From NCBI GenBank assembly GCA_964428725.1, contig CAYRYW010000009.1, positions 468 through 64,467 on the forward strand: 64,000 nucleotides of DNA. Direction: 5' to 3'. The notes beneath the pieces are model-generated. The model was not told where the DNA came from. It saw nothing but the letters and a program-made list of their open reading frames with translations, and searched no databases. A program made the position numbers and the translations under genes. This DNA is from an uncultured Dehalococcoidales bacterium (GTDB lineage: Bacteria; Chloroflexota; Dehalococcoidia; E44-bin15). Below are positions 36,806 through 56,295 of the stretch, one piece after another. Position 1 is the first letter of the stretch. Each line of letters begins with the position of its first letter.

Positions 36806-37141
36806 ATGTCGGAATTGTATCAAGCTCTAGTGGATGGGCGGGTGACGCTGGATGGTCTTAAGGCGGAGGCCGACCCGGAGCCCAAGCAGCGGGGGAGCCA
36901 GAATCAGCAAGGGGCTCCCAAAAGTGGGGGCATGCGCAGGTTCCGCTTGAACCGCAAGCAGGACGAGAGCGGAGTTTCGGGGGAGGGCATTGTCGCCGAG
37001 GGAGTGGCGTTCTCCAATGGGCAGTGCGCCCTGCATTGGCTGGGGGATCTCTCCTCGATTGTTCTGTACGACGATATGCAGACGTTAGAATCGGTACACG
37101 GCCACGGCGGGAAAACCGAAGTGCTGTGGATGGACAATTAA
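36806..37141 (+). CDS. hypothetical protein
   Basis: ATG at 36806 after GAAGGGGGA; the track ORF starts at 36734 inside terL. N terminus ..ALVDGRVTLDGLKAEAD resembles that of the 55915 product. Confidence 0.45.
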   Translation: MSELYQALVDGRVTLDGLKAEADPEPKQRGSQNQQGAPKSGGMRRFRLNRKQDESGVSGEGIVAEGVAFSNGQCALHWLGDLSSIVLYDDMQTLESVHGHGGKTEVLWMDN

Positions 37142-37151
37142 GGAGTGTAGC

Positions 37152-37778
37152 ATGAAGATGAGTTCCAGAGTGGCGCAGAGGATAGCCGATCGAATCACGG
37201 ACGGTCTGCTGGTATCCGGACGGGGGCGAGCAGCCAATGCCAAGGCCGGTGGCGATGACTTTACCGATTTCGTCCGGACTCTAACGAGAGACCTGAGCCG
37301 GTTTCAGAGAGAGATATTTAGCACCGTTGACCGGGTGTGTAAAAGATTCGGTGTCGAGACCCCATCTGCTATCCGCGGCATAATTGTGGAGGATCTCGGC
37401 GAGCTCGTTGCTTACGTTCAGGCAGCAGCGGCCCGGGGCTCTTATCGATCAATTGCCGGGTTGGCGACTAACCCGGTTGCTCCTATCAGATATCTTGCTG
37501 ATGACCCTGAGGAGCTGTTGGAGGAGATAGATGCAGCGACCACTTATCTGGAGAGACGGAGGGGTGAGCTGGTGAAGCTGAGTGGGGGTATCGCCCTGTC
37601 GAGCCGCACTTTCAAGCGCCTGTTGCATGTGACGGCCGGGGGGCGGGACGAGGCATCTAGGGAGCTGGCCAGGCATATAAAAGGGATATCGGAGGAGGTG
37701 GCCGCGGCATTCTCTGCAACCCATGAGGCTCTGGATAGGGTAGAGCGGGCGTTGTCCTCTCTGGAAAGGATTCGATGA
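37152..37778 (+). CDS. helical protein, paralogue family member 1 (KAGGD motif at residues 31-35)
   Basis: 208 codons. N terminus VAQRIADRITDGL..NAKAGGDDF parallels the 38140 product. Coupled to the next gene. Confidence 0.55.
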   Translation: MKMSSRVAQRIADRITDGLLVSGRGRAANAKAGGDDFTDFVRTLTRDLSRFQREIFSTVDRVCKRFGVETPSAIRGIIVEDLGELVAYVQAAAARGSYRSIAGLATNPVAPIRYLADDPEELLEEIDAATTYLERRRGELVKLSGGIALSSRTFKRLLHVTAGGRDEASRELARHIKGISEEVAAAFSATHEALDRVERALSSLERIR

Positions 37779-38143
37779 TGAGTGGGGCACTACAGCAATT
37801 TCTGAAGAGTGGGGGCGCGTTCGATGATCTGAAAGGCAACGATGGTTCCTCTCCCCCCGTTAAGGCAGGGGGAGATTTGGATTGGCTACAGGGCCGGCTG
37901 CAGGGTTCCCAGCGCGAATTGGGTGGGCTGATGCGCAGGGTACATAACCTGTCCGGGGATGTGGTCCAAGTCGGTCTGGACTTGGCCCCTGTCGGGCAGC
38001 GGGCAGAGCGGGCGGGATTCGACGATATCTTCAGTACAGCCGCCGATGCCTTCGACCACATCGCCGATGCCAGGGAGCTTCTGGACTCCGCCGAGAAGGC
38101 CCTCAAGCAGGCGGAGAGGGTGTTGAATAGGGGAACTAGATGA
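37775..38143 (+). CDS. helical protein, paralogue family member 2 (KAGGD at residues 30-34)
   Basis: 122 codons, ATGA coupling at both ends. Contains PPVKAGGDLDWL. The C-terminal AEKALKQAERVL is like its neighbours. Confidence 0.5.
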   Translation: MMSGALQQFLKSGGAFDDLKGNDGSSPPVKAGGDLDWLQGRLQGSQRELGGLMRRVHNLSGDVVQVGLDLAPVGQRAERAGFDDIFSTAADAFDHIADARELLDSAEKALKQAERVLNRGTR

Positions 38144-38655
38144 GCAACCGACCAGTAGCACAAGAGATCGCCTCCCGTATTGCCGAGGGACTAGCGGGTG
38201 GGCCAATCAAGGCCGGCGGTGACGTTGCCAGATTAGAGAGGGAGCTGGAGACCGAGTTTGGTGCATTGGCCCGTCAGGTGAAGAGCCGGGTGGAGAATGT
38301 GTGTGGCCGGTTCGGCATTTCTTTGGGGCCCAAACTGCAGCGGTGGATAGACAGAGCATTCAGAGATTTGCATATTCGGATTTCAGACACCGTTGGGTAT
38401 ATGATGGAGGAAGCCGGCATGCTGTCCTTGCCCGACTCCCGGCTTCCGGCTGTCAAGTTCGGCTCCAATGAGAAGCTCCTCAAAGAGGCCTCCCAGCATC
38501 TGGAGCGGGCCTACCGGGTGGCGGACATGGCGTCCAAGTCACTCAGGCGGACTGATCCCTCTACTTCGGATCTAATCGATCGAGCTACTCGCAAGATGGC
38601 TGCTGCCAATGGAGAGATCCGGGGGGCGAAAGACCGGTTGGGAGGATACCCGTGA
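38140..38655 (+). CDS. helical protein, paralogue family member 3 (KAGGD at residues 24-28)
   Basis: 171 codons. VAQEIASRIAEGLAGGPIKAGGDVARL. ..VENVCGRFGISL parallels ..VDRVCKRFGVET in member 1. Confidence 0.55.
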   Translation: MSNRPVAQEIASRIAEGLAGGPIKAGGDVARLERELETEFGALARQVKSRVENVCGRFGISLGPKLQRWIDRAFRDLHIRISDTVGYMMEEAGMLSLPDSRLPAVKFGSNEKLLKEASQHLERAYRVADMASKSLRRTDPSTSDLIDRATRKMAAANGEIRGAKDRLGGYP

Positions 38656-39266
38656 GCACCTATCGGCACAGGCCGTATCGAGCAGCAACCAGCGTCCCAC
38701 GCCTCGTCCGACAGGTGGACGATGCAATCAAGGAGATCGACGGCATCAAGAAGGAACTAGACACGGCCGGTACTCATTCGGCCAGGCTCAAAACCAAATT
38801 GCTAGCACTGGCCAGAGATGCCGCCGAATTCGGGGCCGAAGAAATCGCTGTTGCTGCGCGGTTCCTGTCCAAAAATGTTTTGCGCGACATGAACAGCGCA
38901 GATTCCAACCTGATCGAGGCCAAACACCAACTGGAGCAAGCGGCGCGCCGGCTGGAATCCCGTGAAGAGAAGGCATATCCGCATATCCCGTCACCGGTCA
39001 AGGCAGGGCCTCTGGAGCCGTTCCCTACAGTGCTGAAGAACCATTGGAGATCGGTGTCCAGGATATTGAATGGGGATCTCAGCAGACAGCCCGGTGCTCT
39101 TAGGGCCAGAGCATCTGAGATAAAGAATGAGAACGGTGGGGCCCCCGATCGGCATACTGAGGCCCTATACCAGGCGGCCGACAAGGTGGACGATGCCTTG
39201 AAGGCTCTGGATAATGCCCGGTCGGTTCTGGGCAGGGCCGGGACCATCCTGCAGCGGGCGGGATAG
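38652..39266 (+). CDS. helical protein, possible distant family member 4
   Basis: 204 codons, GTGA coupling. Internal SPVKAGPLEP. C-terminal ALKALDNARSVLGRAG. Confidence 0.5.
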   Translation: MSTYRHRPYRAATSVPRLVRQVDDAIKEIDGIKKELDTAGTHSARLKTKLLALARDAAEFGAEEIAVAARFLSKNVLRDMNSADSNLIEAKHQLEQAARRLESREEKAYPHIPSPVKAGPLEPFPTVLKNHWRSVSRILNGDLSRQPGALRARASEIKNENGGAPDRHTEALYQAADKVDDALKALDNARSVLGRAGTILQRAG

Positions 39267-39355
39267 GAGGTAACGGGGGGGGAGATTTCTGGGTAAAAGA
39301 GGGCGGCGGCATCTGAGCTGGCACGATTTCAACCATATACTTGAGGAGAAAACCA

Positions 39356-39898
39356 ATGACTTCTGAAGGAATGAGTGGTACGCGCAACAAAATGACGGGG
39401 GCCCTGATCGTTGGGGCCCTGCTTCCGGTTTTGCTTCCAGCGCTTCTGGTGATCCCGGTGGGCACGAGCCCAGAGGAAGTTTGGGAGGCCATCCTGGCCT
39501 TCCTCACCATGGTCTGGACCTATGATGGGGTCAAGTGGATCGTGTTTCATGTCCTGCTGAACACCGTTGCAGCTTTGGCGGTTTCGATCTACACCGGTGA
39601 GTTCATCTTGGGGAAGTTCTTCGAGTTTCTGTATCGGAAACTCCTGCCCTACGTGTTGCTCTACTATGTGGCCAAGCTGGTGGGGATGGAAGTTGGCCAG
39701 GAGTGGATCGCCCCTGCTTGTTGGGCCATCATCGGGGCTACCCTGCTGGGCGATCTGGCCGACAATGCCCTGAAGCTGAACCTCCCATTACCAGAGAAGG
39801 TCAAGATGGCTCTGTCCTGGTTCGTGAAGATGGTCAAGGCCAATCCCAGCATGCAGGCCAGGGAGGCCTACCTCCGGCACTACAGGAGCAAGTTCTAG
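39356..39898 (+). CDS. integral membrane protein (about 4 TM helices); holin candidate
   Basis: ATG at 39356, 7 nt after GAGGAG. Four hydrophobic stretches. Lies upstream of glycosidase/peptidase genes. Confidence 0.45.
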   Translation: MTSEGMSGTRNKMTGALIVGALLPVLLPALLVIPVGTSPEEVWEAILAFLTMVWTYDGVKWIVFHVLLNTVAALAVSIYTGEFILGKFFEFLYRKLLPYVLLYYVAKLVGMEVGQEWIAPACWAIIGATLLGDLADNALKLNLPLPEKVKMALSWFVKMVKANPSMQAREAYLRHYRSKF

Positions 39899-39934
39899 AG
39901 CCGAAGCCGGCCAGATAGGAGCGCACACTGATGA

Positions 39935-40414
39935 ATGGGCCAAACGGTGAATAGCACTTTAACAACCATCTTGATATCTCTGATCTCGGGGAGCGCCCCG
40001 TCTATTGTCTTGTGGCTGCTTACCAGACGCAAATACGAGGCAGAAGTTGGCAAGCTGAAGGCGGAAACAGAGAAGCTGGAAAGCGACGCTGCAGCGCTAC
40101 TGACGGAGGCTGCATCCGGATTGGTGGGGGATCTTCGCTCCGAGGTGGATGCGCTCAAAGAGGACAAGCGGGGCCTGGAGAAGCGGGTTTCCCAGTTGGA
40201 GGAATTGGGCGGTAGACAATCAGCCACCATTGCCAATCTGAAAATAGCTCTATCCAGGGCGGAGGGCAAGATCTATCAGTTGGAGTGTGAGAACAGGACT
40301 CTGAGAGAGACCAATCACCGTTTGGCCCAGCATTTGGCAGATATGACGGGGGGAGACACAGGCCCCCTAGACATACTGGGAGAGGAGCCTTGTGAAGGCG
40401 AGGACGAGAGCTGA
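39935..40414 (+). CDS. N-terminally anchored coiled-coil protein
   Basis: 159 codons. TM segment LTTILISLISGSAPSIVLWLL, then heptad-like EAEVGKLKAETEKLES.. The stop shares a base with the next start (TGATG). Confidence 0.45.
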   Translation: MGQTVNSTLTTILISLISGSAPSIVLWLLTRRKYEAEVGKLKAETEKLESDAAALLTEAASGLVGDLRSEVDALKEDKRGLEKRVSQLEELGGRQSATIANLKIALSRAEGKIYQLECENRTLRETNHRLAQHLADMTGGDTGPLDILGEEPCEGEDES

Positions 40415-42378
40415 TGACTGAGCGCGACTACCTTGAAAATCCAGGGTTCAATGTGCCGTGGGAGGCAGAGGAAAGCCACAGGTACCTGGTCGTCCCGCTG
40501 GAGGACGGGCGGCCGCCGTTTTTCACGCAGGCCGGCATTATTCACGCTCCCCCACGCTGGACACCCTGGTGTATAGTGGACGAGGAGAGTGGGTGGGACC
40601 ACCCAGAGGTTCATCTCAGATCGAGGGAGCAATTTCCGGAGCGAGTGTGCGAAGGAGAGCGGTCTGCTATGCTGTTTACCTTCTTCAGGCGGCATGATGC
40701 AGGATTCCAGCAGACGCTTCGGGTCCCGGCAGGGACTCTGATCAGACTCACTGCTAGAGCCCATGCCTGGAGCAACCATCTGGATGGGGAGCACCCGGAC
40801 GATCCGAGGTGGAGTGAGGGGGCGGGGTACGGAGCCGGGTTCTTGTCGGCCGGCTTGGCCCCCAACGATGAATGGGCAAATTTCACCTTCTGGGTGGGCA
40901 TAGACCCAACTGGGGGGAACGACCCACTATCCGATTCGGTGGTCTGGGGACACGGGGCCCACATCTATAACGAGTTTGCGGATGTCCCCCCAGTGGAGGT
41001 GATGGCCGGCGACAGTCCGATCACGGTGTTTCTGAGATCGAGAACGGCCTATCCTTTCAAGCATAATGATGCCTATTGGGATGATGCCCATCTTCTGGAG
41101 GTCCCCGTTGAGCCGGAGATCGAGGGGGGATCGACAAAGCTTGGGGCCCATGTTCTGAGGACAGCAGCGGATTTGGGAGGGTATATCGATGCCGGCCCGG
41201 CTGTGGTCAAATTCGTGGGAGATTGGGGGATGGCGGAGCAGGTCCCGGAGGGGGTCCTGGTTGTCGGCAGAAAGCACATGTCGGAGTATGATGCCCAGCA
41301 GCAGCGGGCATCCGGTCAGGGCCCGGACGATGCAGCCCGGCAATTCATTGAGGATCAGAGGGGAGTTTATCAGTCCAATCCTGGTATCAAGTACTGGGAG
41401 GGGCACAATGAGCCTGTGTGGAACTCTGTGGAGGATATGACCTGGTATGCCCGGTTCGAGATCGAACGGATGCGCCTGATGGCGGATCTAGGCCTCAAGT
41501 GTGTGATTGGCAATTTTGCCACAGGCACCCCTGCACTCAACCTCTGGCCGGCATTCGTTCCGGCTTGTAGGGTGGGCAAACAGAGAGGGGCCCTGCTGGG
41601 CCTGCACGAGTATAGTTGCCCCTGGATGTGGTGGATGACTGGAGCGTATCAGATAGACCCGACCGAGGATGAGGGGGACGAGGGCTGGACTACATTGCGA
41701 TACAGAAAGGTCTATCGGCAGCACCTAATACCAAGCGATGCTGTTATCCCTTTGGTGATCACCGAGTGCGGGATAGACGGACTCGTTAGGCCGTTGCCAC
41801 CCGGAGTAGATGGGGGGGCCTGGAGCGACCTGGGGGACTTTTGGCGCGACCACGACCAGGAGCCGGACAAGGAGGACTACTACTTCAGGCAGCTTGTCTG
41901 GTATGATCGGGAATTGCAGAAGGATGAGTATGTGGTGGGTGCTACGGTGTTCGCTTGGGGAAATTTCGGGCCGCCATGGGATGCATTCGATATAGCGGGA
42001 ACGGGGGTATCCGAGAAATTGACTCAGTATACCATAGAGCATCCGGCTGAGGGGTTCGATCCAGGAGGTTCGGGCAGGGGGACCCCACGAATCCAGTACA
42101 ATAGGACCTATGTTCTTTTGCCCCCCGATTGTGGGGCCGAGTGGGCTGCGGCCGTGATTGCTGCAACCTGGGAGGAACACCGCTTCACGATCGGTGGAAG
42201 TGCGGATGATGCTGGCATCGGGGATCTCGACTATCGCCGAGTCGTTGCGGTCAACCCGGAGCAGTGGCGCTCCGATCTGGAAGGATTCTATCAGCGGCAT
42301 TACCCGAAGGTGATTTTCCGGCCGATAACGGCGGAATCCCCTGAAGAACTGGGGGTGGCGCTTCGTGCTCTGGAGTGA
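40414..42378 (+). CDS. glycoside hydrolase, clan GH-A (TIM barrel) type, with N-terminal beta-rich domain
   Basis: 654 codons. WEGHNEPVW (acid/base NEP) and LVITECGIDG (nucleophile TE) with TIM-barrel-like spacing. The N-terminal LENPGF..W is CBM-like. Confidence 0.5.
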   Translation: MTERDYLENPGFNVPWEAEESHRYLVVPLEDGRPPFFTQAGIIHAPPRWTPWCIVDEESGWDHPEVHLRSREQFPERVCEGERSAMLFTFFRRHDAGFQQTLRVPAGTLIRLTARAHAWSNHLDGEHPDDPRWSEGAGYGAGFLSAGLAPNDEWANFTFWVGIDPTGGNDPLSDSVVWGHGAHIYNEFADVPPVEVMAGDSPITVFLRSRTAYPFKHNDAYWDDAHLLEVPVEPEIEGGSTKLGAHVLRTAADLGGYIDAGPAVVKFVGDWGMAEQVPEGVLVVGRKHMSEYDAQQQRASGQGPDDAARQFIEDQRGVYQSNPGIKYWEGHNEPVWNSVEDMTWYARFEIERMRLMADLGLKCVIGNFATGTPALNLWPAFVPACRVGKQRGALLGLHEYSCPWMWWMTGAYQIDPTEDEGDEGWTTLRYRKVYRQHLIPSDAVIPLVITECGIDGLVRPLPPGVDGGAWSDLGDFWRDHDQEPDKEDYYFRQLVWYDRELQKDEYVVGATVFAWGNFGPPWDAFDIAGTGVSEKLTQYTIEHPAEGFDPGGSGRGTPRIQYNRTYVLLPPDCGAEWAAAVIAATWEEHRFTIGGSADDAGIGDLDYRRVVAVNPEQWRSDLEGFYQRHYPKVIFRPITAESPEELGVALRALE

Positions 42379-42381
42379 GAG

Positions 42382-42847: not shown

Positions 42848-43230
42848 GCACTATGGCACTGGTTGACCGGATAGCCGAGAGGGTGGCGGCCGGCCTGAAG
42901 GGATACGGAAGTCAGTGGCGGGTATGCGATTACAAGGGGAAGCTGGCAATCACGCTTCCGGCAGCCCCAGACTGGAATGAGCCGTTTATGGTCAAGCCGT
43001 ACCACGTCTCTAATATCCCGGTCAGTCAATATCGGGAGCTGCTAGATTGCCCGGTTCGTAACCTCCGTGGGAATGTGGGGACGGTTGCCCCGATCGGTGG
43101 GAGACCCAAACGCCTGGATACTTCGGGGTGGAAAAGAATCGAGGAGAAGAAACGAGTACGCAAGCCCCCCAAGGGCAGGGATTACGACTATGTGTGGGAG
43201 CGGGGGGAATGGAGGAAAGAGTGGGTATAG
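42844..43230 (+). CDS. hypothetical protein with LVDRIAERVAAGL N-terminal motif
   Basis: 128 codons, ATGA coupling. Confidence 0.45.
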   Translation: MSTMALVDRIAERVAAGLKGYGSQWRVCDYKGKLAITLPAAPDWNEPFMVKPYHVSNIPVSQYRELLDCPVRNLRGNVGTVAPIGGRPKRLDTSGWKRIEEKKRVRKPPKGRDYDYVWERGEWRKEWV

Positions 43231-43250: not shown

Positions 43251-43457
43251 ATGCAGGATGTCCTGGACTCGCTTGAGAAGCTGGCAGAACAGAAGCAGGA
43301 GGCTGTGGCCCTTTGTAGAGAGCTGCTTGGTGTGCTCGAGCGGATCCATGAGGGATTCGATGAGAGGGATTCAGAGAAGGCATCGAGCGTCCTGGGACGG
43401 AGCTTAATCGATGCCTGGTCAAAGAAGATCGAGGGGCTGAGTCATGCGAAAGATTGA
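43251..43457 (+). CDS. small helical hypothetical protein
   Basis: First ATG after the upstream stop, in the frame of track ORF 43128..43457. Confidence 0.35.
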   Translation: MQDVLDSLEKLAEQKQEAVALCRELLGVLERIHEGFDERDSEKASSVLGRSLIDAWSKKIEGLSHAKD

Positions 43458-44262
43458 CCGGGTTCTGGAGGAGATGAATGGCGGCCTGGTGGGGTTCCGT
43501 GTTAGAGACCAGCGGGTGCTGTTCAAAGCGGTAGCAAGGACTGTCACGCCGGCTTCTGGGTGGATCTCGGACGATGGTACCGATGTGGATTTCATCATCC
43601 TCACCCGCAAATGGAGGGCCCAAGTGCAGGAGGTGGGAACCCGGATTCCTCCAGTGTTCCTGCAGACCGATGAGCGGTGGGCCGATCTAAGGTACTCGCC
43701 AGAGAGCCGGCTGACCTTCGACCAGGCCGGCTGTCTGGTATGCACTGCAGCTTCATTGGCGGCCTGGGCAGGGTATGACGTGGACCCGGTATCCTTTGCT
43801 GGGGCCATTGCTGAGAAGGGGGCTTTCTCTGGCGGGAATTTGGGGCATCCCTCAGCAGTGGCGCGGGCGTTTCCGAAGTTGACATGGCATTTGGCAGGGG
43901 ATCGGGTGTACTGGTCTCCCAAATATCAACAAAGGGAGACCAGTCGCATTGATTGGGGGGACAGACCGGCGGACGTTGGGTGCTTGGGGCCCATCCTGGA
44001 AGCCCAGCCCGTTCCGATCAAGGTGGACTACAAGCCGAATACCAGACCGATCGATCAGCACTTTGTCTTGGCGTATTGTTATATTCCAGACCCAAACGGA
44101 GGGCTGAACGATGATCTGTTGGTGATGGACCCAATGTCTGGGAGGACGTCTGCACTGACGTATTTCAACCCAGATTGGTTGAACGATTGGATGAAACGGG
44201 AAGGCGTAACGCGTGTGGAGCGGCTCCTGATGGGGGCCAGGGTTTGGGACATACAAGACTAG
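43444..44262 (+). CDS. papain-like cysteine peptidase (C39/NlpC-like); endolysin candidate
   Basis: 272 codons. Candidate catalytic Cys in DQAGCLVCTAASL and His in DQHFVLAYCY. The assignment is tentative. Confidence 0.4.
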   Translation: MRKIDRVLEEMNGGLVGFRVRDQRVLFKAVARTVTPASGWISDDGTDVDFIILTRKWRAQVQEVGTRIPPVFLQTDERWADLRYSPESRLTFDQAGCLVCTAASLAAWAGYDVDPVSFAGAIAEKGAFSGGNLGHPSAVARAFPKLTWHLAGDRVYWSPKYQQRETSRIDWGDRPADVGCLGPILEAQPVPIKVDYKPNTRPIDQHFVLAYCYIPDPNGGLNDDLLVMDPMSGRTSALTYFNPDWLNDWMKREGVTRVERLLMGARVWDIQD

Positions 44263-47281: not shown

Positions 47282-47294
47282 GGGGAGACAGCCT

Positions 47295-49961
47295 GTGGCC
47301 AATAGACTGGCAAAGATAGCCGGCCAACTCGGCGCGGCTGTCGGCACCTTTCAAAAGAATAGGATGCAAGCTGTGCGGGGGAAACGGGCCCCGTTTCTGG
47401 CATCTATGGCTCAGCAGGGCAAATGGCGGGGGAGCGGCAGCGGATCAACCCGCCAAGCCCAGCGTCGGGCAGTCCAGAACAGTTGGGTGTTTGTGGCTTG
47501 CTCCTTCATATCTCGACAGGTCAGTGCTGCGGAATTCCAGGTATTCAAGCACCAGAAGGGGAAAAAGGACCCGGTGCGGGTGCCCGGCCATCCTCTGGAG
47601 GTTGTACTGCGCAGGCCCAACCCCTGGATGGGTAGCTCGTATATGTGGCAATACTCGGCCTGGTGGCAGCAACTGAATGGAAACTCCTATTGGTATTTGG
47701 GGCTGGACCGGGGAGGGGAGCTGGCAGAAATCTGGCCCATGCCGTCGGAGGATGTGGAACCGTTCCCAGGAGACGAAGAACGGTTTGTGGACTTCTATCG
47801 TTACACGGTGGGGGGGCATGCCTATGATATCCCGGCCGAGTATGTGGTTCACACTAAGCTGGTTAACCCCTTCGATGTCTTTCGGGGGATGAGCCCCCTG
47901 AAAGCAGCCATTTTGCCATCGGACGTGGATCTGTTCATGTCGAGGTGGAATGCGGCATTTTTCGGTAGAGACAACACTATGCCCTCTGCCATTATCAACA
48001 TTTCGAGTGAGGACCCAGAACATCCTCTGGAAGATTCGGACATAGCGGCCCTGAAGGAGGATCTTAGGCAGGATTACCACAGCATCAAGCGCAAGGCCGC
48101 CATCGTCAGCGCGGCCAAGCTGGAGGTGGAGCTCCTGGGGTGGAATCCCAAGGATTTAGATTTTATCCAGGGCAGACAGTTTACCAGAGAGGAAATTTAT
48201 GAGATATACGGCATTCCCCCTGGATTGCTGGACAAGAATGCCACCTATGCCAATAGCGCTAATGCTCGAATGGTCTTTAACAATTACACACTTTGGCCCC
48301 TGCTGGTTCTGACAGCGGAGCAGCTAACGGCGGAGCTCGTTTGGCCCTTATACGGGGAATCGTTCTCGGCCGGGTTCATCGATGTTAGGGAGACCAATAG
48401 GGAAACAGAGCTTCAAGAATTGGGCTCAGCCGGCCCCTACCTAACAATCGACGAGATCCGGGCCAAATTCTGGAAATTGCCCCCTCTACCCGATGGCCGG
48501 GGAGAGATCACTGCCGATGAATCACAGCGCGGGGATCTGGGCGGGGGCGGGGACAACCTGTTCGGCAGGGAACCGCCGGCGGGGCGGCCACCCGAAGGCC
48601 CCCCATCTGAGAGCCCACCGCCCAGCGATAAAGATCGGAGCCTGCCCCTTCGGGAGCCGCCAGCAGGGCAGCCCCTCCTCGAACCCGGGCCCGCAGATGA
48701 GCCCCCCAAGGGCAGCGCCAGCAATGAGCTGAGAGAGAGAATCGGCCGGCAGGATCTCCGGAATTGGAGAACCAAGGCAATTCGCAGTGTATCTAATGGG
48801 GAACCACTGCCAGTGGGCTTTCGTAGCAAGTTCCTGCCGGGGGAAGCCAAGACTGCAGTCTCCTCTGGGCTAAGGGCGCTGCAGGCCGTGCGCGGGGCTG
48901 CCGCGGACGATGTGGTGTTGAATTCTGTGAAGGCCCTATTTCAGGAGGTCAAGGTAAAACACTACCCTTTTGATCGGGGGGGTGCAACGGCCCCCATGAA
49001 GGCAGGGAGCAGCCGCCCATGGGATAGATTGGAAAGAACCGTACGCAAGCAAGTCAAGGAGGCGTTGGAGAGACAGGTTGGGCGTATCCTGGACCGAATT
49101 ACAAAGGACGGGGAGGCCGTCGTAAATGATGAGGCCTTCTGGACCGAGCATCGACAATCTATCCTGGATTCTTTAATGAACAGCCTGTCCAGGATCACCG
49201 AATTGGGGGTTGATAAAGCCCGCAGTAAGGTGAGGAGGGATGTAAGGGATTCGATCGATTGGGACCTTGTCAATAAGAGAGCCGAGGATTGGGCCAGGCA
49301 GCATGCCGCCGATCTGGTGACCCAGGTCACAGAGACTACCAGGGAGGAAATGCGCAGGGCTGTGGGGGATTGGATCAACTACGGGGAAGCCCTCCCAGAC
49401 CTACAGAGGCGCATAGAGGGCATCCTGAAGGAGGCCGAGGGGGACGCAAGAGAGGTTGCCGACAGGATCAAGAGGATGGTAGAGGAGCTGAAGGATAGGC
49501 TCCCAGATGAGACAGAAGAGGCTATCCTCCAGGCCATCCAGAGGGCGGGTGGTGATGTGGCCAGGTTGCGACGGGAATTGGGCAAAGTGGTAGGCAAGCT
49601 GGATGTGCCGTCATTGGTGGAGGTCCTAAAGCCCAGGGTAGCAGACCCAGCCAAGATCAAAGAACGGGCCCGCTTGATTGCGCAGACCGAATCGACGGGG
49701 GCGTATGCCTCGGGGAATGCGGAGGCGTGGCAAGAGGCTGGAGCGAAACCGGCTGTATTCAAACCGCCGGCCCATCCGGGATGCCGCTGCTATCTGCAAC
49801 CAAAGAAGCTGGGGGATATTTGGGTGATGGTTTGGTACACTGCCCGTGATGAGCTGGTATGCGAAGCTCCGATCGATACGCCTTGGGGCAAGGTCAATGG
49901 GTGCAAAGCACTGCACCGAGTGGTGGTGTCTGAGGGGCCCAAATTGGGCCGAAGGGTGTGA
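47295..49961 (+). CDS. portal protein fused to a MuF/SPP1-gp7-like minor head domain
   Basis: 888 codons, GTG start. N-terminal ~420 aa is portal-like (SWVFVACSFISRQ.., WNAAFFGRDNTMPSAII, EIYEIYGIPPGLL). A Pro-rich linker follows. The C-terminal ARLIAQTESTGAY ... HPGCRCYLQP is the MuF-type signature. Confidence 0.8.
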   Translation: MANRLAKIAGQLGAAVGTFQKNRMQAVRGKRAPFLASMAQQGKWRGSGSGSTRQAQRRAVQNSWVFVACSFISRQVSAAEFQVFKHQKGKKDPVRVPGHPLEVVLRRPNPWMGSSYMWQYSAWWQQLNGNSYWYLGLDRGGELAEIWPMPSEDVEPFPGDEERFVDFYRYTVGGHAYDIPAEYVVHTKLVNPFDVFRGMSPLKAAILPSDVDLFMSRWNAAFFGRDNTMPSAIINISSEDPEHPLEDSDIAALKEDLRQDYHSIKRKAAIVSAAKLEVELLGWNPKDLDFIQGRQFTREEIYEIYGIPPGLLDKNATYANSANARMVFNNYTLWPLLVLTAEQLTAELVWPLYGESFSAGFIDVRETNRETELQELGSAGPYLTIDEIRAKFWKLPPLPDGRGEITADESQRGDLGGGGDNLFGREPPAGRPPEGPPSESPPPSDKDRSLPLREPPAGQPLLEPGPADEPPKGSASNELRERIGRQDLRNWRTKAIRSVSNGEPLPVGFRSKFLPGEAKTAVSSGLRALQAVRGAAADDVVLNSVKALFQEVKVKHYPFDRGGATAPMKAGSSRPWDRLERTVRKQVKEALERQVGRILDRITKDGEAVVNDEAFWTEHRQSILDSLMNSLSRITELGVDKARSKVRRDVRDSIDWDLVNKRAEDWARQHAADLVTQVTETTREEMRRAVGDWINYGEALPDLQRRIEGILKEAEGDAREVADRIKRMVEELKDRLPDETEEAILQAIQRAGGDVARLRRELGKVVGKLDVPSLVEVLKPRVADPAKIKERARLIAQTESTGAYASGNAEAWQEAGAKPAVFKPPAHPGCRCYLQPKKLGDIWVMVWYTARDELVCEAPIDTPWGKVNGCKALHRVVVSEGPKLGRRV

Positions 49962-50488: not shown

Positions 50489-51282
50489 TGGCAGGGATGG
50501 CGGCGATTCGACTCCCTGGGTCTTTAATAGCGGCCTGCAGGGCCTATGTCCGGGAAATAAAGAGAATAGAGCGCGAATTCGAGCGCTACTACCCCAAATT
50601 GCCGGCGGGATCTCTCACGGTGATAGAGAGGGATCGACGCAGATTGCACGATCGGGTCATCGCTGAGTTGCGAAAGATCGGGGCCAGATCCCTGGAGAGA
50701 GCAGACGCTACTCTATTGGCATACGCCATAGTCGACGGCCAGTACACGGGGCAAGAAGACCCAAAAGAGTGGCTGAAGAGGGAGGGCTGGTTGGTGGATG
50801 CCCCACAGCATTCCAAGGCCGCATTATTGGAGGACATCATCGTTGACGAAGTTGCCCGATCTCTGAAAGCCCTGGGGATCCGAGTTGTCTCGGTCAAGGC
50901 CAGGGGCCAATTGTTTCGGGAGCTCCAGGCTTTGCGGGGGAGAATGGCCAGGGCGGCCCAACGGGTCTATGACCGGTGGCAGCCTGGAGACTATGGCGGT
51001 GGCGGTGCCTGTGACGACATAGCGGGCGCGCTCCTCGATGTGGCCCTAGATGCTAGGAGTGCGGACGGGGGGCGGGTAGCCGGTTGGGCAGCAGATCACG
51101 CTTTCGCTCTGGTCTGGAGCGATGAATTGGGAGAGGCATGCAGAGTTGACATCTCACCCTACACCTACGAGACCGGTGGAGGTTACAATTGGGACAAGAT
51201 CGAGGGGGTTCGATTCTCTTCAGGCGATGTCTATGTCGAGGACATCTCTGAGGATATCGAGCACATAAAAGGGGGGCATTGA
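50488..51282 (+). CDS. hypothetical protein
   Basis: The ATG at 50488 shares a base with the upstream stop (TGATG). 264 aa. Confidence 0.45.
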   Translation: MAGMAAIRLPGSLIAACRAYVREIKRIEREFERYYPKLPAGSLTVIERDRRRLHDRVIAELRKIGARSLERADATLLAYAIVDGQYTGQEDPKEWLKREGWLVDAPQHSKAALLEDIIVDEVARSLKALGIRVVSVKARGQLFRELQALRGRMARAAQRVYDRWQPGDYGGGGACDDIAGALLDVALDARSADGGRVAGWAADHAFALVWSDELGEACRVDISPYTYETGGGYNWDKIEGVRFSSGDVYVEDISEDIEHIKGGH

Positions 51283-51283
51283 G

Positions 51284-51649
51284 ATGGGAAGGAATCGAAT
51301 GGCCGAAGGATTGGTCAACAGGATAACTGCCCAAATTGTTGGCGTACGCTACCCGGCCAGTGGGCTAAAGGCCGGATTTGGGTCTGTGGAGGGCCTAATC
51401 CAGGCGATGAAGCGGGCCGGCTGGAGAAACGTGACAGAATCTGGGGACGCGGTTATTGGAGAGGCCCGCACTTCTGCCGGCGAATTCAGCATAGAGGCTG
51501 TGCAAGCGGTGAACAATGGCGGTGAACCCAACTTCTGGAGTGTGTTCGGCATCATCGATGACCTTGATGCTGAGGTTCACATGCGATACTCCTTGGGGCG
51601 GGTTCCCGGGCCCAGGGATGTGGAGAGAGTGATCGAGCGGGAGCTGTAG
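51284..51649 (+). CDS. hypothetical protein (N-terminal LVNRITAQI..GLKAGFG)
   Basis: 121 codons, directly upstream of the protease-capsid gene. Confidence 0.45.
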   Translation: MGRNRMAEGLVNRITAQIVGVRYPASGLKAGFGSVEGLIQAMKRAGWRNVTESGDAVIGEARTSAGEFSIEAVQAVNNGGEPNFWSVFGIIDDLDAEVHMRYSLGRVPGPRDVERVIEREL

Positions 51650-51661
51650 AGGGAACGGCCG

Positions 51662-54478
51662 ATGCCATATGGTGTATTCAAAACCGGTTCCGGAAGTGAC
51701 CCCTACTGTGTCTACAAGACTGATGGTGACGGGCACAGAATGGGGGAGGCATTCGGGTGTCACCCCTCAGAAGAAGAAGCAAGGGGGCAGATTATGGCTA
51801 TAGGGGCTAGATCCCATACCAGGGCGTCGGTTGGGGATTTTCTGTTATCGGTTAAGGCCAATGTGGGCGGCCTGATGGAGGGCCAAATCCATCAGGTGTT
51901 TTCCGTCATCGCCGATCAGCTCTTGCAATTGGGCGTGATTGACAGAGACCAGCGTATAGAGCTGTCGTCAGCCATTGGGGATTCATTGGACAGCTTGCAC
52001 AAGGTCATCGAGAAGCACGGCCTGGACAACACCGAACTGTCTGCTGAGGCAGTGGAAACCCTGATGGGCGGCCGGCTCCTGGGGGGTGGGGAGGATAAGG
52101 GAGCTCCTCCTCCAGCCGAACGACAGCCCCAGCCGTCAGCACAGCGTCCCCAAGAAGAGCAGGCGGCTAGGGCCCTGACGCTTGAGGAAACCCTGGTTTC
52201 ATCGGGTAGCGGTCTTAAGGCTGTGGGCGATGGCTGGGTAGAGGGATATCTAGTAGTTTGGTCTCCCAACAAGCAGCGGGATCTGGGAGGCGACTATTTC
52301 GATGACAAAACAGATCTCGGCTGGGAAGGGCGGGAAAGCAGAACCGCACTTTACCACCACGGCCTGGATCACACGATGGGCAAGAAATCTCTAGGAAGCG
52401 GCTGGGAATTTGTGCGGCGCGACGATGTGGGCTTGTGGGTTCGCACACAGTTGGACATGCGCGATCGTTACGAGAGTGCTATCTACAAACTGTGCGAGAT
52501 GGGCAAGATGGGGCTCAGTAGTGGAACGGCATCGCACATGATAGTCCGTGAGGACGACGGCCGCATGGCTAGATGGCCGATCGTTGAGGGCAGCTTTACC
52601 CCTGCCCCGATGGAACCACGAACGATGGTCTCCCCTCTGGGTGAAATCGCGGGTAGAGCGGTTCCGTTTAAGTCTTTGCTGTCAGAACTCGAAGGCGGTG
52701 TTATAGGGGCACCTAACGCTAGAGGGCCCGAGAACACTCGCGGGGGGATGGGCAATGACGATTGGATTAGTTGGTACCTTGGCATACTGGATCGGGAGGT
52801 AAAAGCGATGACAGTAGATGAATTGATTGGGACCCTCAGAGAGTTGGTCCCGGAACTGAACGATGACCAGCTACAGCAGATCCAGTCTATCCTCCAGTTG
52901 GGAATGGGCGAGACCCCAGTGGGGGGAGACGAGGAAATGCGAGCGTGGACGGGCGGCGGCTACATCGACCCATGGAAAGCCGCTGCTGAGCTGGACACTA
53001 TCCTGGACACTATCCAGAGCGTGGTTCAGCTCGATGACGACAAGCTGGCCAAGATCACTTCTGTTCTTCAGTTGGCCCTGCAGGGAGCGGCCGAGGAGGC
53101 TGGAGAAGGGAGCTATATGGAGGACTACGAGGACGAGGTCGTGGCTCCCATGGCTGAAGAGGTGGTCGCTGGTGAGGAGGTAACAGAGGAGGAAATTCGA
53201 TCGATCGTCAGTGATGCGGTGTATGGAGCGATGGGCAGCGGCCCGAGAGTGAGACCCCGCCGTCGGGCAGTCTCTCGTCCCCCGTATGCTTTCACTCCGT
53301 CCGCACGCGTTGGAGGTAACGATATGTCAGCAGGCAAAGCGGCCCAGGTTCTTCGCTATGGGCATCCGGATGCGGCGGTCAAGGCCATCGCCACAGACTT
53401 GTACGGCGGCAATTACGAAGCGCTGCGGTATAAACAGCACAAGGCCTTCGGGGCATTCTTGAGACACGGTGAGCGGGCCCTGAGTGATGACTACCAGCGG
53501 GCTATGAAGACCGTTGTACTCACTCCTACCCAGTTGAAGGCATTCGCCTTGAGTGGGGTCGATGTTTCGTCCTTCAAGACCGAGATGTCGGAAGTCGTGG
53601 ACGATCTGGGTGGGTGGTTGGCCCCAGAGGATTTCCGCACGGACATGATCGAGCGGCTGCCCGGCTTGACAGTGGTTCGGCGTCGGGCGGATGTGCTGCA
53701 GACTGGGTCAGACATGATGTCCCGCGTCAAGGTGACCGGTGGGGGTGATCGATATACCTCCGCAGTCCGGGTGACTTGGGTTGGAGATGTGCCTTCCGAG
53801 GGAGACGCTGATACCAATCCCACCTTCGGCGTTGAGCGCACGCCGATCCACATTGCCAAAGCAGTTGTGTACGTCCCCATGTCCTTGCTGGAGGATACGC
53901 CCTTCCCGCTGGTGGAGAAGATCAACCAGTGGGTTTCTGAGGCGTATGCCCTCGACGAGGATGAGCAGTTTCTGGTGGGCGATGGCATCGCCAAGCCCGA
54001 GGGCATCCTGCCCGACGAGGGCAACGGCAACGATCTGGAAAGCGTGGCCTCTGGGGATGCCGACACTGTCACGTTCGACGGATTGGTAGGCATGCGCTAT
54101 GGGATTGGCCGCCAGTATCGGCAAGGTGCATGCTGGACCATGAACGACTCTACCGCCAGCGTGATCGCCAAACTGAAAGATGGAGACGGGCGGTACCTGT
54201 GGCAAACCAGCAATCAGGAAGGCGAGCCGGACCGCATGCTGGGCTACCCGGTGGAAACCTCCGAGGCCATGCCAGATGTAGCGGCCGGTGCCTTCCCCGT
54301 TACCTTTGGGAATTACAACCAGGGCTACCAGATTGCCGATCGTATCGGCATGAGCGTGGTTCGGGATGATGTCACCAAGGCGGAGGAGGATCTGGTCAAA
54401 TTCATCTTCCGGCGTCGGCTCGGTGGTCAGCTCAAGGCTGAGTGGGCCTTCTGCGTGATGGAGATTTCGGCCAGCTAG
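51662..54478 (+). CDS. single polypeptide: N-terminal domain + HK97-type prohead protease + acidic scaffold-like linker + HK97-fold major capsid protein
   Basis: 938 codons. The protease region is WVEGYLVVWSPNKQRDLGGDYF..ALYHHGLD..GLSSGT. An E/D-rich linker follows. The C-terminal ~400 aa is capsid-like (..LTVVRRRADVL.., ..DEDEQFLVGDGIAKPEGIL.., ..GYPVETSEAMP..). Confidence 0.8.
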   Translation: MPYGVFKTGSGSDPYCVYKTDGDGHRMGEAFGCHPSEEEARGQIMAIGARSHTRASVGDFLLSVKANVGGLMEGQIHQVFSVIADQLLQLGVIDRDQRIELSSAIGDSLDSLHKVIEKHGLDNTELSAEAVETLMGGRLLGGGEDKGAPPPAERQPQPSAQRPQEEQAARALTLEETLVSSGSGLKAVGDGWVEGYLVVWSPNKQRDLGGDYFDDKTDLGWEGRESRTALYHHGLDHTMGKKSLGSGWEFVRRDDVGLWVRTQLDMRDRYESAIYKLCEMGKMGLSSGTASHMIVREDDGRMARWPIVEGSFTPAPMEPRTMVSPLGEIAGRAVPFKSLLSELEGGVIGAPNARGPENTRGGMGNDDWISWYLGILDREVKAMTVDELIGTLRELVPELNDDQLQQIQSILQLGMGETPVGGDEEMRAWTGGGYIDPWKAAAELDTILDTIQSVVQLDDDKLAKITSVLQLALQGAAEEAGEGSYMEDYEDEVVAPMAEEVVAGEEVTEEEIRSIVSDAVYGAMGSGPRVRPRRRAVSRPPYAFTPSARVGGNDMSAGKAAQVLRYGHPDAAVKAIATDLYGGNYEALRYKQHKAFGAFLRHGERALSDDYQRAMKTVVLTPTQLKAFALSGVDVSSFKTEMSEVVDDLGGWLAPEDFRTDMIERLPGLTVVRRRADVLQTGSDMMSRVKVTGGGDRYTSAVRVTWVGDVPSEGDADTNPTFGVERTPIHIAKAVVYVPMSLLEDTPFPLVEKINQWVSEAYALDEDEQFLVGDGIAKPEGILPDEGNGNDLESVASGDADTVTFDGLVGMRYGIGRQYRQGACWTMNDSTASVIAKLKDGDGRYLWQTSNQEGEPDRMLGYPVETSEAMPDVAAGAFPVTFGNYNQGYQIADRIGMSVVRDDVTKAEEDLVKFIFRRRLGGQLKAEWAFCVMEISAS

Positions 54479-54493
54479 TTTGGAGAAACCCCT

Positions 54494-54526
54494 GCTGGGG
54501 GGATGGCCAGCACTTCTCCCCCCAGC
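54494..54526 (+). terminator. GC-rich hairpin between capsid and decoration genes (no U tract)
   Basis: GCTGGGGGGA (54494-54503) pairs with TCCCCCCAGC (54517-54526), with a 13-nt loop. Confidence 0.35.
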
Positions 54527-54553
54527 ATACGATAGATAAATGGAGGATAAACG

Positions 54554-54997
54554 ATGAACGTTCACACACCGAGTGATAGCGTACTCACCAAGCAGGCCCT
54601 GGCCCCACAGGACATTGGCACGGGCGCTACCGTCAACGGAACCGGCGTTGATTGTCTGGGGCATGAGGTGGCCGTGCTAGAAGTCAACGCGGGGGCCATC
54701 GATTCTGGGGCCAACAAGAGCGTGACGGTCAAGCTGCAGGAGAGCTCAGATGACGGAGACTCCGATGCCTATGCGGACGTCACCGACGCCACGACGGGGG
54801 CCATCGACAACGACGGGCAGAACGAGCCCTATCTGATCGAGGTCAACCTGTCTGAGCGCGAGCGGTATCTGCGTGCTGTGGCCACCGGGGGCAGCGCCGA
54901 TGGCGGCCTGGTCGGGGCAGTTCTCAACCTGTATCGATCTCGTCACAATCCGCCCACCCAGGATAATACCGTGGTTCAGATCGGCTTCTCTTCGTAG
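54554..54997 (+). CDS. head decoration / capsid accessory protein (candidate)
   Basis: 147 codons, directly after the capsid gene with a strong RBS (TGGAGGATAAACG ATG). Beta-rich. Confidence 0.45.
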   Translation: MNVHTPSDSVLTKQALAPQDIGTGATVNGTGVDCLGHEVAVLEVNAGAIDSGANKSVTVKLQESSDDGDSDAYADVTDATTGAIDNDGQNEPYLIEVNLSERERYLRAVATGGSADGGLVGAVLNLYRSRHNPPTQDNTVVQIGFSS

Positions 54998-55023
54998 GGC
55001 CTGTCAACACGAATAATCGTGGG

Positions 55024-55050
55024 CACACGGGGGGCATCGCTCCCCGTGTG
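55024..55050 (+). terminator. GC-rich hairpin after the decoration gene (no U tract)
   Basis: CACACGGGG (55024-55032) pairs with CCCCGTGTG (55042-55050), with a 9-nt loop. Confidence 0.35.
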
Positions 55051-55066
55051 CTCCTGGAGAACAACC

Positions 55067-55918
55067 ATGAATCGTGCACGGCTTATGCTAGAGGCCAGCA
55101 GGATGCCCGCACATATGAAGGCTGTAACCAGGGAGGGCCCCTTTCTCAGAAGGGTTACTAGAACCAGGGGTATCCTCAGTGCTCAGATTCGCGGGGATCT
55201 GGTAGATGTGGCTTTCGATCCCCGCGAGATAAGGATCGGGACAGTTGACAATCTCCTGTTTAACGCGGCGGGGGACCAGGGCCTGTCTTCTGAACGCGTA
55301 TCCGGGCCGAAGAGATCTGCTAGAGCATATCAGCTAACTGCCACGTACCGGGTAGAAGCTGGGGGGAAGGCGATCAATGAGGATCTGACACTCCACGATG
55401 CCCGCACTCTGTCCAGCGGAACTATCGCCACCTTGACCGGGCTGAACAAATACAGCGATCTGGATAAAGTGCAGGGGGCATTCGTGGATTTTGTGGAGGA
55501 AAGTGGGCCCGGGAAATTTCCCAATTGGCAAGCGGCGTGGCGGGCTTTCGAGGTGGAATTAAAGCGTGGCAAAGCCGGTAGAGCGCTCAGCAGAGAGTTG
55601 AGCCAACCGATGCGCCTGAAAGCCTCGCGGCTTCTGCTATCTGACTCGGCCCGGATTTCCCCGCTGAAGTATGAGATCACCCCAGAGATCGAGGGGTGGA
55701 TGCAAGATGCTGTGGACGATCTGGACGGCATTTGCAGAACGTTTGCTGCCCTGGTTAGGGAGTTGACCCACTTACAATCTGCAGCCCCCATATCCGCCCG
55801 AAGAATCGGGCATTACGAAGGATTGGCCGAGGCGGTGCAGAAGGCCGCCGAAGCCATCAGGCTTCTTCGCAGGGAGCAGCGCCATATGGGGGAGGACCTG
55901 CAGACATACGGCAAATGA
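55067..55918 (+). CDS. hypothetical head-module protein
   Basis: The ATG at 55067 lies downstream of the hairpin. The track ORF starts at a GTG at 55019, before the hairpin, and runs through it. Confidence 0.45.
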   Translation: MNRARLMLEASRMPAHMKAVTREGPFLRRVTRTRGILSAQIRGDLVDVAFDPREIRIGTVDNLLFNAAGDQGLSSERVSGPKRSARAYQLTATYRVEAGGKAINEDLTLHDARTLSSGTIATLTGLNKYSDLDKVQGAFVDFVEESGPGKFPNWQAAWRAFEVELKRGKAGRALSRELSQPMRLKASRLLLSDSARISPLKYEITPEIEGWMQDAVDDLDGICRTFAALVRELTHLQSAAPISARRIGHYEGLAEAVQKAAEAIRLLRREQRHMGEDLQTYGK

Positions 55919-56295
55919 TGCGCCCGATCCACCAGAGGTCTCTCGGAGGATTGCCGCAGTCGTGTTATGGGAGATGGGAGACACAATTAATGCCCAATTT
56001 GGACTACGCTTTAGCATCCGGATGGGTGACATTTGACCAGCTAAAGGCAGGCGGAGACGTCAATGTCAAGCCTCAGATCGATAGATTGGTTAGGGCAGAA
56101 TACCAGAAGTACAATGCCCTGCTTGCCGATATGCAGATCGCCCGTGGGGCCCGGCTCAGGAAGTTGGAAAGGCTGCAGGGGCAATGGTCCAGACACATGG
56201 GTGAGGTGGACAAGATCGGGAGGAAGGAAAGGCCGGAGTATGTGGATCTGCGGATGCTGCAGGGCTTGATCAGAGGTCGTCCCCCAACCGCATAG
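55915..56295 (+). CDS. hypothetical protein carrying LKAGGDV motif
   Basis: 126 codons, ATGA coupling; alternative ATG at 55990. Contains ..ALASGWVTFDQLKAGGDVNVK. Confidence 0.45.
   Translation: MMRPIHQRSLGGLPQSCYGRWETQLMPNLDYALASGWVTFDQLKAGGDVNVKPQIDRLVRAEYQKYNALLADMQIARGARLRKLERLQGQWSRHMGEVDKIGRKERPEYVDLRMLQGLIRGRPPTA

Follow-up and report, generated by a model that had tools for sequence, protein, structure and literature searches.

Within the 64,000-nucleotide stretch of contig CAYRYW010000009.1 analysed here (the window), which holds most of a metagenomic phage genome of ~69 kb, a short N-terminal leader peptide sits on at least eight small proteins encoded in the late gene block, mostly basic and unrelated to one another. 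The leaders fall into two classes and recur in related metagenomic phages. As judged by comparing sequences, they behave as portable elements, kept in related phages while the protein bodies behind them diverge. We tentatively favor, with less than even confidence, a reading in which they are capsid-targeting propeptides like the capsid-targeting sequence (CTS) of phage T4 or the loading signal of P1 DarB, possibly cut after a Lys.

Two classes of leaders mark late proteins of a metagenomic phage

An earlier note on this DNA, made from its letters, had drawn attention to a recurrent KAGGD string and to an amphipathic motif shared by several N-termini, and had proposed that the N-terminal helices send cargo to the procapsid and that a prohead protease trims them at KAGGD. 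All of the strings it listed, exact, relaxed and N-terminal, were found where it had placed them, the five N-terminal helices being those of the 37152, 38140, 42844, 51284 and 58920/58926 products (genes and products are named by the nucleotide at which they start). These strings do not form one single motif, and the N-terminal leaders are the stronger half of the finding.

The shared N-terminal motif beats shuffles, is conserved in relatives and resolves into two classes of leaders, 15–25 residues long. Class A reads M-S/N-K/R-R-(0-4 residues)-h-h-x-x-I-[AST]-x-x-I-x-x-G-L-K-[AG], where h is hydrophobic, and is a basic amphipathic helix with a pI of 10–12. Class B reads L-x-x-G-x-x-[ST]-[FL]-[DE]-x-L-K-[AGT] and is predicted to form a short helix-turn-helix. 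In both classes L-K-(small residue) closes the leader, and a Gly/Pro-rich or disordered linker usually comes next. Five proteins in the window carry a class A leader (37152, 38140, 42844, 51284 and 58926) and three a class B leader (36806, 37775 and 55990), in each case starting 1–5 residues past a start codon that has a plausible ribosome-binding site. The leaders are confined to the plus-strand late block, with none in the 41 open reading frames (ORFs) of the minus-strand early region. Synonymous codons differ between leader copies, and selection therefore acts on the peptide; the same differences led us to rule out a DNA-level repeat or regulatory element.

An all-versus-all comparison of N-terminal 30-mers within the window, made with no motif predefined, yielded four pairs at or above the threshold score of 32, one of them paralogous, where ~0.5 were expected and at most three arose in 100 shuffles. 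The pattern [LIVM]K[AG] fell within residues 9–35 in 9 of its 34 occurrences in plus-strand proteins, compared with 3.7 expected (P ~0.009, uncorrected), and in 1 of 13 on the minus strand. We also collected related loci (L numbers) by scanning viral contigs for portal and capsid genes and by looking up the contigs of capsid homologues. Across 1.26 million six-frame residues from ~70 loci, a class A model exceeded 9 bits at gene starts and nowhere else, all of them in the window, L001, L002/L015, L007 or L008. Model hits outside the training set included L001 3756, the start of a small L008 ORF, L014 8407 and an internal segment (aa 88-101) of a window protein with KOW motifs. A model trained solely on the leaders of the window placed L008 6148 (14.5 bits, E 0.0015) and L007 5559 at the top in other genomes. 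We regard the support for N-terminal leaders as real but moderate, with class A being heterogeneous.

Leaders are kept while bodies diverge

The leader types recur in five related metagenomic phages (L001, L002/L015, L007, L008 and L014), with 2–7 per locus. L002 has two further class B leaders, L014 carries the variants MTSKRANAIANNVMQGLKAD and VSKRSKRIAEIAVRSLKSA, and the L015 leader is MGKRKHLIRAIGRRLKGLS. Among 30 carriers, the bodies (aa 31 to the end) show no BLAST similarity to one another except in three pairs, and genes at the same position in different genomes have a leader in common with no detectable similarity of their bodies. The positional counterpart of 42844 in L002 (8610) begins MSKRRQVAKKIARGLKGY, leader-bearing counterparts of 51284 are found in L001 (3428), L002 (13463) and L008 (about 113), and in L002, L007, L008 and L014 the N-termini of the 58926 counterparts are basic, with L-K at their end.

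Several families are represented among the bodies, including PHROG 7499/PF26761 (the 36806 product), DUF5049 (L008 6148) and a domain in common with the 50302 product of the window, which is leaderless and whose C-terminal part is matched by the body of L002 17445. The pI is at least 9.4 in 23 of the 30 bodies. Bodies also occur by themselves: L014 8680 has a body in common with the 55990 product but not its leader, the 36806 homologues P0068 and P0069 have none, and the uncharacterised Streptomyces-phage and halovirus proteins that the 36806 body matches structurally are all leaderless. In three proteins, one each from the window, L002 and L014, a leader lies internally, at the junction of a longer ORF. 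The internal class B-like peptide of the KOW protein (57709) scores 11.5 bits and separates a helical N-terminal part from the remainder.

An AlphaFold2 (AF2) model of the 36806 product shows the same division. Helices at residues 3-9 and 15-19 are followed by a segment with a predicted local distance difference test (pLDDT) value below 50 at residues 21-40 and then by a body with pLDDT 80-87, so that L-K-A is placed exactly at the start of a 20-residue low-confidence linker. PHROG 7499 covers aa 37-111 only. Two small helical proteins near the end of the window (62346 and 62639) have Arg-rich N-termini that run into SPIKAG and RPALKD, and L007 has five Arg-rich N-termini similar to these; judging by their sequences, they may represent a third leader type.

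KAGGD is a junction specific to one protein family

A six-frame translation of the window contains exactly four KAGGD strings, each in a plus-strand coding frame (nt 37242, 37862, 38209 and 56044). Its Lys is residue 31, 30, 24 and 44 of the 37152, 37775, 38140 and 55915 products, respectively, or residue 19 of the last when counted from the internal ATG used by public gene callers. As the earlier note had it, the first three proteins are paralogues, which BLAST confirms (Table 1) and whose genes lie in tandem, and the fourth has no detectable kinship to them: hhalign aligned the 10-residue motif only, with a probability of 1.3%, and on this ground we rejected the idea that the 55915 product is a remote paralogue of the family. 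The family has a weak fourth member in the 38652 product (21% identity), which has RPYRAATS where others have GPIKAGGD. An exhaustive HMMER search of 1.84 billion representative proteins with the 38140 product retrieved only itself, as did a word-based search with the 55915 product.

A 5-mer common to four proteins arose in 9 of 300 residue shuffles (3%), and ~170 5-mers common to two proteins are expected by chance. Because three of the four carriers are paralogous, leaving two independent families, the KAGGD count is not significant, and the enrichment over shuffled proteomes that had been suggested as a check does not rise above chance once paralogy is corrected for. The VKAGGAP of a tail-fibre protein is an isolated string.

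Within the family, KAGGD is the only block that is strictly conserved among paralogues ~30% identical, and it marks the exact boundary between a helical body and the leader before it, which varies (two members have class A, one has class B and one has none). Its codons vary at synonymous sites across all five copies. The AF2 model of the 38140 product, which is too weak for a fold search (pLDDT 52), has a helix at residues 6-19, a loop at 20-26 and a second helix at 27-57.

The conservation extends beyond the five residues and into another gene. In the stretch AGGDVARL[E/R]REL, 11 of 12 residues are common to the 38140 product and the portal-MuF fusion (47295), and none of 200 shuffles exceeded 9 of 12. 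Between the two copies, at least 7 of the 12 codons show synonymous differences only, and the peptide itself is therefore under selection. The second copy lies in a 71-aa insertion in the MuF half that is absent from the L001 and L002 portals. KAGGD and the helix that follows it are a conserved unit that was also inserted into MuF. MuF proteins are a class known to reside inside heads. From its sequence, this 12-residue helix start, internal in MuF as well, resembles an element for binding, capped by Gly-Gly-Asp, more than a bare cleavage site.

The idea that K-A-G-G-D is a general protease site did not survive these comparisons. The motif is confined to an orphan paralogue family, one isolated copy and the internal MuF copy; the leaders of relatives end in L-K-(A/G/T) with no G-G-D; and conservation over 12 residues downstream of the Lys far exceeds what a cleavage site needs. 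We conclude that P-h-K-A-G-G-D is a family-specific junction and helix cap between leader and helical body. The KAGGD claim taken alone adds little, since the string marks a family-specific junction rather than a protease code.

A prohead protease is fused to the capsid protein

The earlier note also had the phage encode a prohead protease fused to its capsid protein, and this is borne out: the 51662 product joins an S78-type domain, a scaffold-like region and an HK97-fold capsid domain. Pfam PF04586 gave no direct match at E ≤1 to aa 168-373 or to the entire protein. The N-terminal domain of the homologue P0016 matches aa ~175-335 at 47% identity (E 6e-46); P0016 and P0018 score 27.1 and 33.5 bits against Peptidase_S78 (cut-off 21); and H232/H233 and S286/S287 are invariant in seven homologues. 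We consider the 938-residue fusion to be real because an identical protein is found on eight public contigs. It is a single ORF in the window and in P0002-P0007, and there are separate protease and scaffold-capsid genes in L001 (5292-8375), L002 (13970-16751) and L014. Because the fused forms retain the Met of the downstream gene at the junction, fusion and split of protease and capsid appear to have happened repeatedly.

Two relaxed motif versions that had been placed at domain boundaries of this protein fared less well. GLKAVGDG is otherwise explained, as part of the protease domain: all homologues carry G-x-LKA-[LVI]-G in a conserved stretch that directly precedes the Pfam S78 match, and P0006, P0007, P0016 and P0018 start only 10-20 residues ahead of it. 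SARVGGND is not conserved in relatives. The form h-K-A does stand at two polyprotein junctions, protease/scaffold (EVKA/M) and portal/MuF (PMKA/G), and at the latter h-K-A-(G/P) is kept in L001 and L002. Seven h-K-(A/G/S/T) tripeptides are conserved in the polyprotein, and because conserved ones also occur inside folded domains, the tripeptide is uninformative. Two forms of mimicry were rejected here. Class B leaders might have mimicked the capsid maturation region (LSGxxVxxLKTDM), but a model of it made with 15 capsid proteins retrieved no leaders, and a model of the scaffold N-terminus likewise retrieved none.

Fusions to HK97-type capsid domains take another form in the capsid homologue P0008 (JGI, 861 aa), in which 2H-phosphoesterase/LigT-like Pfam domains (PF02834, PF13563) take part.

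Capsid targeting and its alternatives

The anatomy of the leader-bearing proteins (a shared N-terminal peptide, small basic bodies that diverge, a location in the head programme, and a prohead protease) matches that of the T4 CTS and internal proteins and parallels P1 DarB, and we rank capsid targeting with proteolytic removal first for this reason. The leaders would dock cargo onto the protease-scaffold-capsid polyprotein during procapsid assembly, the embedded S78 protease would then remove them, probably after Lys, and the basic, fast-evolving bodies would remain inside the head, from which they might be ejected with the DNA. The S78-type protease sits in polyproteins that must themselves be cut at junctions. 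We favor a cut after Lys because all leaders share L-K-(small), because HK97 gp5 is reportedly cut after Lys103, and because h-K-A stands at the two junctions described above. A possible receptor is the extra N-terminal domain of the polyprotein, which co-occurs with them. Anti-defence or takeover effectors could be among the cargo, and the same tag would mark cut points in fused ORFs; virion-delivered proteins are often anti-defence factors, as are T4 IPI and P1 Dar. Targeting, cleavage, the position of the cut and the fate of the cargo are what we infer from this anatomy, and we keep targeting with cleavage conditional because the tripeptide is uninformative and the capsid and scaffold models miss the leaders. 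That a clade of HK97-type phages uses a two-class address tag to load small basic proteins into the procapsid via the polyprotein is possible, and we put it forward with low confidence.

Several observations weigh against capsid targeting. With the capsid-maturation and scaffold models missing the leaders, no mimicry of known protease substrates is demonstrable. The conserved 12-residue stretch after the Lys and its internal copy in MuF suit a binding helix over a removable propeptide. Leaders of this kind are absent in the more distant relatives L009, L011, L012, L016, L017 and L019 despite protease-capsid genes ~50% identical, and from the paralogue 38652. The h-K-(A/G) motif is low in information and was defined after the fact, and its N-terminal enrichment is modest. 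A model built without window sequences clearly retrieves only the 42844 product (9.1 bits), so that retrieval across genomes is partial. Finally, the phage has no close cultured relative, its best phage protein match being ~33% identical and limited to the capsid domain.

The leaders may instead be non-cleaved helices for docking, oligomerisation or nucleic-acid binding, with KAGGD serving as a turn before the next helix. They would recruit the unrelated small proteins to a single shared partner, be it nucleic acid (DNA or RNA), the portal or neck, or else a chaperone or host factor. We consider this possible and nearly as likely as capsid targeting, and it suits the internal MuF copy better. 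The basic character of class A, the Arg-rich N-termini in L007 and in the 62346/62639 products, the predicted helix-turn-helix of class B and the three leaders internal to longer ORFs are all consistent with it, and AGGDVARLxREL, kept over 12 residues and internal in MuF, would be its binding surface. However, no nucleic-acid-binding or other family was detected in any of 31 carriers, a docking helix does not call for an L-K-(small) ending that is kept throughout, with a flexible linker behind it, and the genes lie among head and neck genes beside the protease.

It is rather improbable that the leaders have no common function, KAGGD being paralogy plus one chance match and the N-termini being generic amphipathic helices that begin with the usual Lys/Arg-rich second codons. 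The KAGGD count corrected for paralogy, the failure of hhalign to extend the alignment of the 55915 product with the family beyond 10 residues, the single window leader clearly recovered without window sequences and the presence of VKAGGAP in a tail-fibre protein would all be expected if this were so. It is harder to reconcile with the 30-mer comparison, which needed no motif definition and topped all 100 shuffles at the threshold score, with class A hits above 9 bits that all lie at gene starts of one clade, with same-position genes that retain a leader in several genomes as their bodies diverge, and with a portal-insertion match beyond all 200 shuffles.

More unlikely still, the first 60-70 residues of the 37152 and 38140 products might be a folded DNA-binding domain, either helix-hairpin-helix (HhH) and like the C-terminal domain of the RNA polymerase alpha subunit (alphaCTD) or a GntR-like winged helix, in which the leader would be helix 1 and KAGGD a hairpin. 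Five of six PDB matches of the 38140 N-terminus are to RNA polymerase alpha C-terminal domains (ranks 1, 2, 4, 5 and 6; 66 residues; E ~1), there is a faint NCBIfam GntR match (E 0.1), and the neighboring 56315 gene has a genuine HhH/alphaCTD-like domain. None of the E-values is significant, however; the PDB match was lost with a three-sequence profile, no HhH or GntR family was found in 31 carriers at E ≤5, there is no BLAST similarity to the 56315 product, and most carriers lack a second hairpin after the leader. We therefore rejected an alphaCTD- or GntR-like fold for the 38140 N-terminus, as its weak hits failed the profile tests.

Least probable by far are double-glycine leaders cut after G-G by a C39-type cysteine peptidase such as the 43444 product: G-G does precede Asp in four proteins, and that product has a Q...GC...H pattern (papain-type by eye only, with no model backing), but we rejected it as a cysteine peptidase for want of any Pfam, PHROG, NCBIfam or PDB match, its gene is close to holin-like genes, G-G is limited to four window proteins and absent from the leaders of relatives, a non-exhaustive scan of ~40 window proteins found no C39 family, and the hydrophobic residues lie one position off the register of the double-glycine consensus.

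If capsid targeting holds, the leaders would be a shared-leader cargo system outside T4-like and giant phages, in a phage with an S78-protease/HK97 capsid fusion. They would also provide a sequence rule for predicting injected or virion-delivered proteins in unculturable metagenomic phages, and a compact tag for loading foreign proteins into an HK97-type shell. If they are non-cleaved docking helices instead, they would still mark unrelated small proteins that converge on one partner, and so give a handle on proteins of unknown function.

Features and genome context

Table 1. Leader-bearing proteins, the portal-MuF fusion and the protease-scaffold-capsid polyprotein, with the motif positions in each (nucleotides of the window; aa, residues of the product; bits, leader model score).
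Feature	Position (nt)	Strand	Details
Small protein, 111 aa	36806..37141	+	class B leader ALVDGRVTLDGLKAEAD, aa 7-23, nt 36824-36874, 23.6 bits
Regions of the 36806 product		+	disordered linker aa 21-40, beta-rich body (AF2)
Paralogue 1, 208 aa	37152..37778	+	class A leader RVAQRIADRITDGL, nt 37167-37208
Paralogue 1, NAKAGGD	37236-37256	+	BLAST E 3e-7 to 38140 product
Paralogue 2, 122 aa	37775..38143	+	class B leader FLKSGGAFDDLKG, nt 37799-37837, 20.0 bits
Paralogue 2, PVKAGGD	37856-37876	+	BLAST E 1e-6 to 38140 product
Paralogue 3, 171 aa	38140..38655	+	class A leader, nt 38152-38193
Paralogue 3, motif PIKAGGDVARLEREL	38203-38247	+	
Paralogue 4, 204 aa, leaderless	38652..39266	+	RPYRAATSVPRL, nt 38670-38705, aligns with GPIKAGGDVARL
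Small protein, 128 aa	42844..43230	+	class A leader ALVDRIAERVAAGLKG, nt 42856-42903, 19.2 bits
Portal-MuF fusion, 888 aa	47295..49961	+	PF04860 and MuF-type PHROGs
Portal/MuF junction, APMKAGSS	48990-49013	+	
71-aa insertion in MuF half	49428-49640	+	carries QRAGGDVARLRREL, nt 49539-49580
Small protein, 121 aa, just upstream of protease	51284..51649	+	class A variant GLVNRITAQIVG, nt 51308-51343, 13.1 bits
SGLKAGFG of 51284 product	51359-51382	+	
Polyprotein, 938 aa	51662..54478	+	N-domain aa 1 to ~170
S78-type protease domain of 51662 product	aa ~175-335	+	GLKAVGDG nt 52211-52234, HH nt 52346-52369, SS nt 52511-52537
Protease/scaffold junction, REVKA/MTVDEL	52793-52825	+	
Scaffold-like region, then HK97-fold capsid domain	aa ~383-540, then to aa 938	+	capsid PF05065
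Small basic protein, 101 aa from internal ATG	55990..56295 (ORF opens 55915)	+	public gene calls start at M26
Class B leader and KAGGD of 55990 product	56008-56058	+	ALASGWVTFDQLKAGGD, 27.4 bits
399-aa protein, two KOW motifs	57709..58908	+	internal class B-like ALNSGEVSFDSLKY, aa 88-101, nt 57970-58011
Small basic protein, 131 aa	58926..59321	+	class A leader ALIDRISGGIIKSL, nt 58944-58985, 14.3 bits
Two small helical proteins, 98 and 91 aa	62346..62914	+	Arg-rich N-termini
Motifs after Arg-rich N-termini of 62346/62639 products	62397-62423; 62684-62701	+	SPIKAG; RPALKD

The replication genes of the phage are on the minus strand at ~4.4-32 kb and include those for DnaB, a family A DNA polymerase, methylases and a short PurA-like protein. 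The late genes are on the plus strand at 32-64 kb, continuing at 1-4.2 kb, and comprise terminase, a lysis group (with a holin-like gene at 39341), the portal-MuF fusion, the polyprotein and neck/tail genes. Megablast against phage records gave zero matches, and a portal-based search found none in species genomes and, in a metagenome scan, only two viral contigs that were already known.

Several genes of the late block stand out. The L001 homologue of the portal-MuF fusion (246-3431; IMGVR_UViG_3300009149_005356) has an insertion of ~290 aa before a conserved C-terminal CRC..LQP motif, and this insertion looks like an intein. The two-KOW protein (57709-58908) and a 151-aa protein with an HhH/alphaCTD-like C-terminus (56315-56770, plus strand) lie in the structural block, an unusual place for their nucleic-acid-binding domains. 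Amid the neck/tail genes is an enzyme gene (60026-61465, plus strand) whose product has sulfotransferase-like and glycosyltransferase family 2 (GT2) parts; its counterparts in L007 (9137-11308) and L008 (6498-8630) encode a methyltransferase fused to GT2, and the gene may reflect virion modification. Between the lysis-like genes and the portal lie a gene for a 555-aa protein whose N-terminus is lipoprotein-like and whose C-terminal domain is that of a phage depolymerase, PF25692 (44304-45971, plus strand), and one for a 654-aa protein with zero family matches (40414-42378, plus strand). The N-terminus of the 272-aa product of 43444-44262 (plus strand), KIDRVLEEMNGGLVG, scores 31 against the 42844 leader.

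In the replication module, a 363-aa adenylosuccinate-synthetase homologue (10904-11995, minus strand) scores 170 bits against NCBIfam PurZ (cut-off 300) and 203 bits against a short PurA model (cut-off 368). Near this gene are the family A DNA polymerase gene and a dUTPase/dCTP-deaminase-like fusion (16975-18777 and 9383-10363, both minus strand). The gene set may indicate a pathway for a 2-aminoadenine (Z-base) genome.

Comparison with known systems

The T4 CTS is ~10 residues long and is cut at L/I-x-E by gp21, which belongs to a prohead protease family other than S78. The leaders described here, of two classes, are 15-25 residues long with L-K-(A/G/T) at their end, and the S78-type protease is part of one polypeptide with the capsid protein. 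The two systems are not homologous in sequence, and whereas encapsidation and cleavage are proven for T4, the present system is known from sequence alone. In both, a short N-terminal peptide is found on several small, basic, divergent proteins of the head programme in a phage with a prohead serine protease, the T4 internal proteins being poorly conserved behind their shared targeting sequence (PMC9026906).

In P1, the N-terminal 30 residues of DarB suffice for capsid loading, and the major capsid protein, like that of HK97, is believed to have an N-terminal scaffold of its own (PMC9024508). P1 is thus alike in having an N-terminal loading signal in a phage with an HK97-like capsid, but the signal was described for one very large protein, and no consensus across many small proteins was reported (PMC9024508).

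A comparison can also be drawn with the phiKZ-like phages, which are giant myoviruses with a T4-gp21-like protease that cleaves after Glu. We know of no shared N-terminal helix in them of the kind seen in the leaders. In two reports, on phages such as SPN3US, many head-internal proteins are described as substrates in which the prohead protease recognizes a short consensus for processing (PMC10052503, PMC7411985).

The scaffold is removed from HK97 Prohead 1 (PMC12749128). HK97 gp4 is a protease of the same family (S78) as the one in the polyprotein here. In work by Duda, Oh and Hendrix from 2013, a short segment of gp4 is said to suffice for bringing a passenger inside the procapsid, and gp5, the capsid protein, is reported to be cut after Lys103. 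The targeting element of HK97 is C-terminal and part of the protease itself, and we are aware of no separate HK97 cargo proteins with a common N-terminal leader.

Encapsulin cargo-loading peptides are short and portable and send unrelated cargo inside an HK97-fold shell. Their G-(S)-L-K-G core resembles, as a lead only, the G-L-K-G/A of the leaders here. Unlike the leaders, these peptides are usually C-terminal, and they act in cellular compartments from which a protease is absent. If the capsid-targeting reading holds, the leaders of this phage would be a variant of the known capsid-targeting propeptide systems.

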